Assembly: GCA_002869405.1 (NCBI GenBank)
Contig: PKSY01000107.1
Coordinates: 1-44,569, forward strand
Origin: Marinilabiliales bacterium
GTDB taxonomy: Bacteria; Bacteroidota; Bacteroidia; Bacteroidales; BM520
Direction of reading: 5' to 3'
DNA: 44,569 nucleotides
Part shown: positions 42,179 through 44,569 of the stretch, in pieces
Position numbering within the stretch: the first letter of the stretch is position 1
Layout: the number at the start of each line of letters is the position of its first letter
The notes under the pieces: generated by a model
What the model saw: the letters and a program-made list of their open reading frames with translations, nothing else
Told to the model about the DNA's origin: nothing
Databases searched by the model: none
Position numbers and translations under genes: made by a program

Positions 42179-42213
42179 GGCGGCAAAGATAGGTCAATTA
42201 TTAATCGGCTGAA

Positions 42214-43410
42214 TTAGAAATTCCTACCAACATCCTTATCCCCTCTTCCTGAAAGGTTAATAATTGACAACTGATCTTTTTGCCCTTCGAGCATCTTCAT
42301 AGCAAGGGCTACAGCATGTGAGGATTCTATTGCAGGGATTATACCTTCAAGCCTTGACAACAGCTCAAAAGCTTCTATTGCTTCCCTGTCGGTGATAAGG
42401 TGATATGTTGCCCTTCCAGAATCTTTCAGGCTGGCATGCTGAGGGCTCACTCCGGGGTAATCCAGTCCTGCGGCAACAGAACGTGTAGGTACTACCTGAT
42501 CATTCTCGTCCATCAGCGCGTAACTATATGTTCCCTGAAATACTCCCGGTCTTCCCATACAAAGTGTTGCAGCGGTTTCATGGAGGAATGGTCCTGCACC
42601 ACCACCTTCAGCTGCATGAATTGACACAGAGTCATCATTAAGAAATGCACCAAACAGACCAATCGCATTGTATCCTCCACCAATACATGCAAACAGGTTA
42701 TCAGGAAGTCGATTCTCTTTTTCAAGGATTTGCTGTCGGGCTTCATTTCCTATTACAGACTGGAAAAAACCAACCATTTCAGGGTATGGATCCGGGCCAA
42801 CCTGTGATCCTAAAAGATAATAGCTGTCAGGGTTTTCTATGTAATATCCCAGGGCAGCATCAACAGCATCTTTCAAAGTCCCGCGACCCAGTGATGTTGT
42901 TACTACTTCAGCTCCCAACAGTTCCATCCGGCGCACGTTCATCGATTGTCGTGAAGCATCTTCGGCACCCATAAAGACCTTGCACTTCATTCCCATAAAT
43001 GCTGCTGCGGTAGCTGTTGCAACGCCGTGCTGCCCGGCACCGGTTTCGGCAATTACCGAACGCTTTCCCATCCTGGCAGCGAGCAAAATCTGGCCGATAG
43101 TATTGTTGATCTTATGTGAACCGGTATGATTCAGGTCCTCCCTCTTCAGGTATATTGCAGAACCCACATATTCCGACAGGCGTCGGGCAAAATAGAGTGG
43201 CGATGGTCTTCCGGTAAATTCTTTTAAAATCCGATGAAATTCAGATATAAACTCAGGATCGTTTTGGCAGAGAAAAAACTGCTCGCGCAGGTGTTGTAGT
43301 TTATCTTCCAGAACCGGCGGCACATATCGTCCGCCATAGTTTCCATATAATCCATTCTGAGCAGTAAATGTTGATATTGCTGTTTTTTGATATGTTTCAA
43401 GATATGTCAT
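42214..43410 (-). CDS. trpB: Tryptophan synthase beta chain
   Basis: 398 aa. PLP-Lys block LKREDLNHTGSHKINN, plus GAGQHGVATA. The phosphate loop reads GGGYNAIG, where the canonical motif is GGGSN. Confidence 0.9.
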   Translation of the reverse strand: MTYLETYQKTAISTFTAQNGLYGNYGGRYVPPVLEDKLQHLREQFFLCQNDPEFISEFHRILKEFTGRPSPLYFARRLSEYVGSAIYLKREDLNHTGSHKINNTIGQILLAARMGKRSVIAETGAGQHGVATATAAAFMGMKCKVFMGAEDASRQSMNVRRMELLGAEVVTTSLGRGTLKDAVDAALGYYIENPDSYYLLGSQVGPDPYPEMVGFFQSVIGNEARQQILEKENRLPDNLFACIGGGYNAIGLFGAFLNDDSVSIHAAEGGGAGPFLHETAATLCMGRPGVFQGTYSYALMDENDQVVPTRSVAAGLDYPGVSPQHASLKDSGRATYHLITDREAIEAFELLSRLEGIIPAIESSHAVALAMKMLEGQKDQLSIINLSGRGDKDVGRNF

Positions 43411-43531
43411 TGTTTTCGTTTTTTTAATGGTTCATGAATATTTCTTAATCGTACTTTCTTCGTCCAAAAATTGTTTGTCTCTGTTGCCCCAGCGGGCCAT
43501 CGTTGTGAATACATATTTTAATTTTTTAGAT

Positions 43532-43560
43532 AAAAAAAAGCCACCGGATTCTCCGATGGC
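43532..43560 (-). terminator. Attenuator terminator of the trpB leader
   Basis: Minus-strand RNA reads GCCAUCGGA-GAA-UCCGGUGGC followed by U8. The stem is 9 bp including one G-U pair. On the plus strand that pair would be a C-A mismatch, so the hairpin is specific to the minus strand. Confidence 0.65.
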
Positions 43561-43596
43561 CTCAATATTTTGCACATAATGGATTCTTCCGTTAAC

Positions 43597-43641
43597 CTAA
43601 GTTATCAGATTCCACCACCATGTATTTGTTCTGTGCATCAT
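43597..43641 (-). CDS. Trp leader peptide MMHRTNTWWWNLIT (14 codons, three consecutive UGG)
   Basis: ATG ATG CAC AGA ACA AAT ACA TGG TGG TGG AAT CTG ATA ACT TAG, read from the minus strand. The stop lies 37 nt upstream of the terminator stem. Confidence 0.6.
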   Translation of the reverse strand: MMHRTNTWWWNLIT

Positions 43642-43658
43642 TTGCTTTTTATTTGGAA

Positions 43659-43666
43659 CAAAATTA
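43659..43666 (-). promoter_or_regulatory. Candidate -7 box (TAATTTTG) for the trp leader transcript
   Basis: TAnnTTTG match on the minus strand, 18 nt upstream of the leader ATG. A TTTG lies 18 nt further upstream. Confidence 0.35.
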
Positions 43667-43697
43667 TTCAAATTTCTCAAATCACAAAATATTTTTT

Positions 43698-44569
43698 TTA
43701 TTCTATGGTTTTTGCTGAGCGGGAGTTCACAAAAAGGATCTCTCCTACTCCATCAAAACCAAGAAAAGCCTCTTCCTTCTCATGCTTAACCTGATCCGAA
43801 CGGAACCCCATAATTGTCAGGTCTGCTTTATCAGAATACTCTGCCATTACAGAACGTATATTGCGTTCAGGATCTTTTTCTATAATTCTAATATTCCGGG
43901 AAGTAATTGGGAGTCGTCCGCTTTTCAACAAATCCTCAAGATATTCTCGCTCTTCAACAATCATTTCAGGGTCGCATACATCAAAAATGGAGATATGACA
44001 CCTTTTCCAATAAGGATGAGCAGAAATCACATATCCCAACAGAATCATCAGATTGGCATTATCAGGGTCACTTTTTTGAATCCAGATATGTATATCGCGA
44101 CGGCGCTTTTTTGGGTTGGCAACCTGTGCACAACCAAGTACGCATACATCACAATCAGCAGCTGCTACAAGATTAAAATTATCAGTAATCTGATGAAGAT
44201 TTTCAGGCTTGTTTTTATCAAAATCAAAGATTACCATATTATTCTCTTTTCCGGTAACGGAAGGAAGCTGGATTACCTGAGCAATTGCTGAAGTGTAGGA
44301 AGGTGAAATCAGAGTATCCACATATATCTGACCTTTACGGGAGCTGGCTCTGTCAAGGAGCACTTCTTTAATGTCCTCGGCCTGCTCTTTGGTTTTCTTG
44401 CTAAAATATCCCTGAAAAAGATGAATAAAAGTTCCAAACCCGTACTTATGACTAATCCACGACATCAGATTAAGGGCATTATCTCTGATAAGCGAATCGG
44501 TGCTTACACAAACAACGGCAGGGCGCCATGTTTCACTTTCACCTCTACTGCTCTCTCCCTGTAGGTAAA
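43698..44569 (-). CDS. C-terminal cytoplasmic domain of an amino-acid-permease / cation-chloride cotransporter (SLC12-like) protein; N-terminus beyond the right window edge
   Basis: The frame stays open from the track ORF (43698..44465) up to the window end (...YLQGESSRGESETWRPAVVCVSTDSLIRDNALNLMSWISH...). The WRP block and the following regulatory-domain-like sequence resemble SLC12 C-terminal domains. This call is from memory. Confidence 0.55.
   Translation of the reverse strand, partial: YLQGESSRGESETWRPAVVCVSTDSLIRDNALNLMSWISHKYGFGTFIHLFQGYFSKKTKEQAEDIKEVLLDRASSRKGQIYVDTLISPSYTSAIAQVIQLPSVTGKENNMVIFDFDKNKPENLHQITDNFNLVAAADCDVCVLGCAQVANPKKRRRDIHIWIQKSDPDNANLMILLGYVISAHPYWKRCHISIFDVCDPEMIVEEREYLEDLLKSGRLPITSRNIRIIEKDPERNIRSVMAEYSDKADLTIMGFRSDQVKHEKEEAFLGFDGVGEILFVNSRSAKTIE

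Follow-up and report, generated by a model that had tools for sequence, protein, structure and literature searches.

A probable ribosome-mediated tryptophan attenuator upstream of a lone trpB gene in an uncultured Bacteroidales clade

How is a trpB gene that stands by itself adjusted to the supply of tryptophan (Trp)? The question is raised by a stretch of bacterial DNA of 44,569 nt (called the window here, by which the whole stretch is meant), in which a leader and the trpB gene that follows it are read on the minus strand. The trpB ORF matched the NCBIfam family TIGR00263 with 526.6 bits (cut-off 392), and the PALP domain is present in its 398-aa product. No other trp gene adjoins trpB in the window, and none was found within about 2.5 kb of trpB in any relative, as far as each locus extends. 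The gene is nevertheless preceded by an array of small elements (Table 1), of which the first is a short ORF rich in Trp codons. We consider it likely, with a probability of about 0.8, that a ribosome-mediated transcription attenuator sets the expression of trpB by the supply of charged tRNA-Trp. The regulated gene, trpB, belongs to the pathway of the amino acid that is sensed. There is little novelty in the main element, which is a largely ordinary example of a kind of switch already described; what it does offer is a lone trpB under probable attenuator control.

Table 1. Coordinates of the features of the trpB leader region in the window, and of the conserved core of the second small ORF in related loci
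Feature	Position	Strand	Description
Possible -33 element TTTG	43688-43685	-	18 nt upstream of the -7 box
Candidate Bacteroidetes-type -7 box TAATTTTG (TAnnTTTG)	43659..43666	-	Sequence and recurrence in relatives
Leader ORF uORF1, MMHRTNTWWWNLIT and stop	43597..43641	-	14 codons
Hairpin P1 (1:2 structure)	43573..43624	-	Minimum-energy fold
Proposed antiterminator strand (region 2)	43572..43598	-	Alternative fold predicted under the ribosome mask
Intrinsic terminator	43532..43563	-	12 pairs, 6 of them G-C, then U8
Terminator, 5′ arm	43563-43552	-
Terminator, loop	43551-43549	-	GAA
Terminator, 3′ arm	43548-43537	-
Terminator, U-run	43539-43532	-	U8
Second small ORF uORF2, MYSQRWPAGATETNNFWTKKVRLRNIHEPLKKRKQ	43407..43514	-	35 codons, between terminator and trpB
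trpB (tryptophan synthase beta subunit, 398 aa)	43410..42214	-	TIGR00263 match
MATE transporter gene	42178-40847	-	Downstream neighbour, 3′ of trpB
uORF2 core in relatives	L002:3850-3900, L003:1094-1150, L081:1552-1596, L166:1081-1159, L168:1095-1200, L171:149-230, L173:1082-1163, others

Anatomy of the leader and its recurrence in related loci

The leader was compared with those of related trpB genes. A TrpB protein search with one genome per species returned nine Bacteroidales genome bins at 62-75% identity (L001-L009), and a metagenome scan together with exact-protein look-ups added L081, L083, L084, L086, L163, and L166-L173. These 22 loci are informative, in that each holds a Bacteroidales-type trpB with at least about 250 nt upstream; the contigs of three closer relatives (P0002, P0003, and P0009) break inside the leader and hold fragments of uORF2 only. 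An earlier note on this DNA, made from its letters, had read the region as the canonical layout of ribosome-mediated Trp attenuation and had proposed a comparison of orthologous trpB leaders. The anatomy was confirmed and it recurs. In 22 of the 22 informative loci, a TAnnTTTG-like box is followed by a short ORF with a WW or WWW run and by a hairpin in which the Trp codons lie in the 5′ arm; next come a spacer rich in A/U, often AAAUAUA, a GC hairpin trailed by a U-run, and then trpB. The closest leaders are those of L001 (MKNTCKFWWWFLIT) and L163 (ending in NNIWWWHLITYR), and in both the terminator is nearly identical to that of the window.

The -7 box that had been proposed on the minus strand ahead of a short ORF is present as TAATTTTG. 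The pattern TAnnTTTG is not enriched in the window (39 occurrences were found and 48 expected), so the box carries weight only because of where it lies and because it recurs in relatives. Similar boxes lie just 5′ of the leader ORF as TACTTTTG in L001, TAGATTTG in L003, and TATATTTG in L166, L168, L172, and L173, and we take TAATTTTG to be the probable promoter element of the leader. In five relatives (L166, L168, L171, L172, and L173), the TATATTTG box stands only 4-7 nt before the leader ATG, so that their leader transcripts may be leaderless or nearly so; the corresponding gap in the window is 17 nt.

The 14-codon ORF with three consecutive UGG codons, likewise described earlier, was recovered in full as uORF1. 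It reads ATG ATG CAC AGA ACA AAT ACA TGG TGG TGG AAT CTG ATA ACT TAG, with the UGG run at 43620-43612 and the stop four codons after the run, and it has no Shine-Dalgarno sequence. The string TGGTGGTGG is expected 0.24 times per window and was observed twice; the second copy (11738) is part of an ORF of 865 aa, where it is read in a Gly frame, and is irrelevant to the leader.

The Trp codons are held in hairpin P1. In the minimum-energy fold, the outer helix of P1 pairs 43624-43615 (UACAUGGUGG, which includes Trp codons 1 and 2) with 43582-43573, and encloses a small two-part hairpin, formed by 43609-43606 with 43591-43588 and by 43604-43601 with 43596-43593. The 1:2 pause helix that had been suggested over the first two Trp codons is contained in this fold, where ACAUGGUGG (43623-43615) and CCAUUAUGU (43582-43574) form 9 bp, two of them G-U, to which one further U-G pair is added. 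The inner hairpin keeps its pairing despite sequence changes in L001 and L163, the helices in the folds being UAAC/GUUA, UAACA/UGUUA, and UAACG/CGUUA. Folding of the 136-nt leader with RNAfold gave -38.3 kcal/mol (z = -3.9), with none of 200 shuffles equally stable. This stability, together with the low expected count of TGGTGGTGG, indicates that the leader pattern did not arise by chance. When the region from the start of the leader to the terminator was compared with shuffles of its downstream half, a z of -3.4 was obtained for the window (p = 0.005), and the combined p for leader-to-terminator stability was about 1e-10 over 15 leaders, which, as for the other combined p-values given below, are related and not independent. 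Only the overall stability of P1 was significant. Pairing of the Trp-codon bases themselves was not unusual, because G/U-rich runs pair easily.

The GC core of the terminator begins 36 nt past the stop codon of uORF1, and the hairpin alone is worth -17.9 kcal/mol. The 9-bp GC-rich hairpin with U8 that had been noticed after the leader stop proved to be the core of a longer stem of 12 pairs, with the T8 ending at 43532, and the distance to the trpB ATG (43410), estimated at about 120 nt, was measured as 121 nt from the end of the U-run. In an alignment of 19 leaders, compensatory double changes were found at 7 of 9 aligned pairs of the terminator stem. The terminator was also the only structure recovered when 19 whole leaders were aligned with MAFFT and analyzed with RNAalifold; P1 was not recovered because its length is too variable. 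The spacer before the terminator (43564-43572) is A/U-rich, and often reads AAAUAUA(C/A)A in distant relatives and in the published Bacteroid-trp seeds; it would form the apical loop of the antiterminator that is proposed below.

Alternative folds of the nascent transcript

In the mechanism that we infer, transcription would probably start a few bases past the TAATTTTG box, and the 14-codon leader would be translated as RNA polymerase advances. With Trp plentiful, the ribosome would reach the UAG and its footprint would cover 43598-43588, a segment that copies one arm of the terminator. With the leader untranslated, P1 and the terminator would both form and transcription would stop. Either way, the strand 43598-43572 would be unavailable, the 12-bp terminator would fold as its 3′ arm emerges, and transcription would end in the U-run at about 43532. 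When charged tRNA-Trp is scarce, the ribosome would halt on UGG UGG UGG, hold the 5′ half of P1, and free 43598-43572 (n 44-70, where n = 1 is the A of the first uORF1 ATG and the window coordinate is 43642 - n). The freed strand would pair first with the 5′ arm of the terminator and then also with the first bases of the 3′ arm, the latter because it is a near copy of the 5′ arm. Folding of the terminator would be delayed long enough for the polymerase to pass, and the read-through transcripts would carry uORF2. Translation of trpB is probably coupled to that of uORF2, as the uORF2 stop codon and the trpB ATG overlap.

The antiterminator, which the earlier note had not been able to find by eye, was sought by folding. 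Two segments of region 2 are candidates. The segment AGGUUAACGGA (43598-43588) starts in the stop codon of uORF1, resembles the 5′ arm of the terminator, and can pair with the 3′ arm, since UAGGUUAACGGAAGAAUCC repeats the terminator's GAGGCCAUCGGAGAAUCC in degenerate form; the segment UCC..AUGUGC (43583-43572) can pair with the 5′ arm. A stalled ribosome was represented by masking nt 1-34 of the leader, or as far as 12 nt beyond the first Trp codon, the +12-nt footprint being an assumed value. In the classical 2:3 test, the ribosome was masked, the transcript was cut before the 3′ arm of the terminator, and the energy gained from pairing of the 5′ arm with upstream sequence was measured. By this measure the antiterminator was no better than shuffles (p = 0.73 in the window; 0.15 combined).

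An alternative, composite hairpin that draws on either arm was found. In it, the 3′ arm of the terminator is paired with n 44-48 and 51-54 (AGGUU..CGGA, from the UAG stop) and the 5′ arm with n 59-61 and 65-70. The energy gain was -11.1 kcal/mol in the window, compared with -7.1 +/- 3.4 kcal/mol in shuffles (p = 0.11). For L001, p was 0.01, and the arm copy and the 3′ arm form nine contiguous pairs (GUUACCGGA:UCCGGUGGC); the combined p was 1.6e-4 over 15 leaders, again related and not independent.

Folding of the growing transcript revealed a contrast between stalled and unstalled states. When the ribosome was placed on Trp codon 1, nascent transcripts of about 90-100 nt had the alternative hairpin as their fold of lowest energy, and the terminator replaced it only once 8 of the 12 bases of the terminator's 3′ arm had emerged; three of these bases were enough to nucleate the terminator when the ribosome stood at the stop codon or was left out. 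The contrast is also present in L001 (9 versus 3 bases), L163 (6 versus 3), L005, L006, L007, L009, and L086, and such a stall-specific delay is absent in about seven relatives (L002, L003, L004, L008, L083, L084, and L081/L167). Compared with shuffles of the intervening sequence, the delay had a p of 0.073 for the window; for L001 p was 0.013 and for L163 0.060, and the combined p was 0.004 over 19 leaders, a value that overstates the evidence since these leaders are related. At equilibrium, however, the terminator state is favored even with a stalled ribosome (-21.0 versus -14.2 kcal/mol), as it is in every ribosome state in the window, so that the antiterminator model has to rely on kinetics, like the E. 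coli paradigm. A direct-path estimate put the barrier for refolding from the alternative hairpin to the terminator at about 15 kcal/mol. The comparison of folds with and without masking of the Trp codons, which had been put forward as a check, revealed a delay of the terminator (8 versus 3 bases) and no switch of the favored state at equilibrium. The missing antiterminator was filled in only in part: a stall-specific alternative hairpin exists, whereas the plain 2:3 pairing does not rise above chance and the support within the window is marginal (p 0.07-0.11).

The composite antiterminator is the weakest part of the model; it is plausible but not established, and marginal in the window alone. 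A related reading keeps the Trp attenuator as real and assigns the escape from termination to a different pairing, a pseudoknot, a pause of the polymerase at P1, or some protein factor. The negative outcome of the 2:3 test, the seven relatives that have no stall-specific delay, and the thermodynamic preference for the terminator in every state in the window all fit such a reading. We nevertheless regard it as improbable, given that all three leaders of the window's clade show the stall-specific delay and that the arm copy of L001 can form 9 contiguous bp with the 3′ arm. If the composite hairpin does act as the antiterminator, the latter may be built from a copy of a terminator arm that overlaps the leader's stop codon, which would tie the choice of fold directly to the position of the ribosome.

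Relation to known Trp leaders

Among described RNA elements, the attenuator proposed for the window most resembles the Bacteroid-trp leader (RF01692), which was characterized by two or more UGG codons and "a loosely conserved hairpin" (Weinberg et al. 2010, PMC2864571 supplement) and was predicted for trpB and trpE of Bacteroidetes (PMC2864571). The window shares with it a Bacteroidetes-type host, a position directly upstream of trpB, a short ORF with at least two UGG codons, and an A/U-rich spacer and intrinsic terminator after the hairpin. In the RF01692 seed and consensus, a smaller hairpin is nested within one whose 5′ arm includes the UGG codons, which is the form of P1 in the window, and the string AAUACAUGGUGGUGGA is common to the window and one seed sequence. 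There are also differences. The window leader is shorter (14 codons), with its stop only four codons after the Trp run, and in the published leaders that were examined a short spacer separates the terminator from a trpE-like ORF, whereas the window has a lone trpB and a spacer of 121 nt, which carries a second Trp-containing ORF.

The RF01692 covariance model returned no match at E <= 10 in a 501-nt slice of the window (43300-43800), nor at the gathering score in the whole window; it likewise gave no match in 13 relatives at the gathering score, nor in four relatives at E <= 10. The best Rfam matches in 43300-43800 at E <= 10 were to terminator-like sRNAs and Phe_leader, all at chance level. 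Judged by layout and genomic context, the leader of the window belongs with the Bacteroid-trp class, as a divergent member that falls outside the current covariance model. Trp attenuation of the Bacteroid-trp type would extend to an uncultured Bacteroidales clade, and annotation pipelines will leave these leaders unmarked because the current Rfam model misses them. The only results of a literature search for experiments on Trp attenuation in Bacteroides or Bacteroidetes were the 2010 prediction and one mention in Flavobacterium psychrophilum.

Two further Rfam families were considered. The trpB motif (RF04312), a riboswitch candidate of Firmicutes and Fusobacteria (PMC11109978), had no match in the window, and a match of its model in L081 was at chance level (25.3 bits against a threshold of 59, E = 7.2). 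The model of the gammaproteobacterial trpL (Trp_leader, RF00513) had no match in the window either, and one match in L166 (22.6 bits against a threshold of 41) was judged to be due to chance.

In its architecture, the window leader is close to that of E. coli trpL, with tandem Trp codons in a leader of 14 codons, a 1:2 hairpin that holds these codons, and a 3:4 terminator followed by a U-run; the difference in energy that separates terminator from antiterminator in trpL is also similar to that of the window. The two have no sequence or model similarity. The window carries three Trp codons and trpL two, and pairing of region 2 is predicted to involve both terminator arms in the window, whereas in trpL it involves region 3 only. 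Furthermore, the window leader has a putative Bacteroidetes-type promoter and no Shine-Dalgarno sequence, and it precedes a lone trpB rather than trpEDCBA.

The second small ORF and the neighbors of trpB

The spacer between the terminator and trpB is occupied by uORF2, which carries Trp codons at 43499-43497 and 43466-43464 and whose TGA overlaps the trpB ATG (ATGA). A Trp-containing uORF2 is found at the same place in most relatives. Its core, W-[IL]-x-[KR]-x-[IVT]-[IL]-F-R-W-[RQPH], is conserved in at least 12 of them (L002, L081, L003, L164, and L166-L173), in forms such as YWIRRTIFRWQ, VWLGRTIFRWP, FWLKKVIFRWR, and EKIIFRWR. In the Phi-F-R-W part of this core, where Phi stands for I, L, or V, all differences among loci in the codons for Phe and Arg fall on the third position, and the second base of the Phi codon is unchanged; variation mainly at third positions is the pattern expected for selection on the peptide. 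The clade of the window (L001 and L161-L163) retains only R-W, close to the N-terminus, and every uORF2 in it reaches or overlaps the trpB ATG. The version in the window is reduced to M-Y-S-Q-R-W-P..., in which only R-W-P of the motif is left.

The conservation of the core suggests that the uORF2 peptide itself may matter, for example as a nascent-peptide or coupling device that would tune trpB after read-through. It may couple or occlude translation where trpB starts, serve as a second hungry-codon sensor, or act through its nascent peptide. Translational coupling is not general, since uORF2 ends 28-260 nt before trpB in many relatives. In the relatives, uORF2 has some likeness to tnaC of the tryptophanase operon, as a small ORF before a gene of Trp metabolism that encodes an apparently conserved Trp-containing peptide. 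The tnaC leader senses free Trp through its nascent peptide and is Rho-dependent. The direction of regulation that uORF2 would require is opposite, and uORF2 presumably bears no resemblance to the W12/D16/P24 pattern of TnaC. No description of the conserved W-x7-W / FRW peptide was found in the literature, and the FRW codon string was not found in the published Bacteroid-trp alignment with 300-nt flanks. A peptide-conserved small ORF between terminator and trpB may be of interest to specialists; it is weakly represented in the window.

Two further readings give uORF2 a larger part. It is possible, and we put it forward only tentatively, that the lone trpB of this Bacteroidales group is under two successive Trp-sensing leader peptides, the attenuator and then uORF2 after the terminator. 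According to the other reading, uORF2 would be the main Trp-responsive step, with an effect either at the trpB start, by translational coupling or occlusion, or by way of its nascent peptide, and the terminator would be a constant partial stop. The Trp codons and the overlap with the trpB ATG in the window, L161, L162, L163, and L001 would agree with this, as would the W-x7-W / FRW motif conserved in 12 relatives. Such a role is very unlikely, however, as so little of the motif is left in the window and the ORF so often ends short of trpB; moreover, L005, L006, and L008 have uORF1 and the terminator and lack uORF2, and in the 121-nt spacer of the window neither a second attenuator nor a structure that masks the trpB start was found (fold z = -0.86), leaving no structure to be remodeled.

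Some relatives have other elements in this region. In L004 (697-771) and L083 (1531-1605), the second ORF has a WWW run of its own, MILLYRQI(H/E)QI(A/S)VFAPWWWRGLPA, and immediately after the run a GC hairpin (GCGGGGCCUCCCCGC) falls inside the final codons of this ORF; in L084 a similar hairpin follows W-R-W. The arrangement in L004 and L083 looks like a second attenuator-like unit, with no adjoining U-run. In L169, short tandem repeats (GAACCCTTGAACTCTT and GGAAGACGG units, at about 1000-1110) lie between the second small ORF and trpB, and lengthen this spacer to more than 150 nt.

The gene upstream of the leader, which encodes a transporter, ends at 43698. That the hairpin and U-run are merely the terminator of this gene, and the WWW ORF a chance, non-regulatory one, is hardly credible: no other terminator was found between 43698 and 43563, and short ORFs are abundant in A/T-rich spacers, but TGGTGGTGG is expected less than once per window (0.24), a promoter-like box stands between the upstream gene and the leader ORF, and a WW or WWW ORF with a terminator precedes trpB in 22 loci in which the surrounding sequence and the upstream genes vary, the latter sometimes lying on the other strand (e.g., L003, L005, L007, and L009).

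The attenuator assigned here to trpB is accompanied by different neighbors in different relatives. L001 is syntenic with the window, having an SLC12-like transporter gene followed by trpB, a MATE transporter gene, and a gene for an HYC_CC_PP protein. In five other loci, a convergent ORF (458 aa) lies 3′ of the lone trpB (L002:5320-6696, L003:2557-3933, L164:1501-2841, L167:2597-3591, and L170:2573-3591). It is recorded as a Beta_elim_lyase (tryptophanase-family) gene in L164, L167, and L170, and the N-terminal sequence of the ORFs in L002 and L003 resembles that of these three. The pairing of a lone trpB with a tryptophanase-like neighbor suggests that the enzyme may have a role in indole salvage or turnover, and not in a full pathway operon. 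In the window, the 35-nt gap between trpB and the MATE transporter gene holds a further box of the TAnnTTTG type, TATCTTTG (42184-42191, minus strand), 5 nt 5′ of the MATE ATG (42178), which may be a separate promoter that gives rise to a leaderless MATE transcript, or a chance occurrence.
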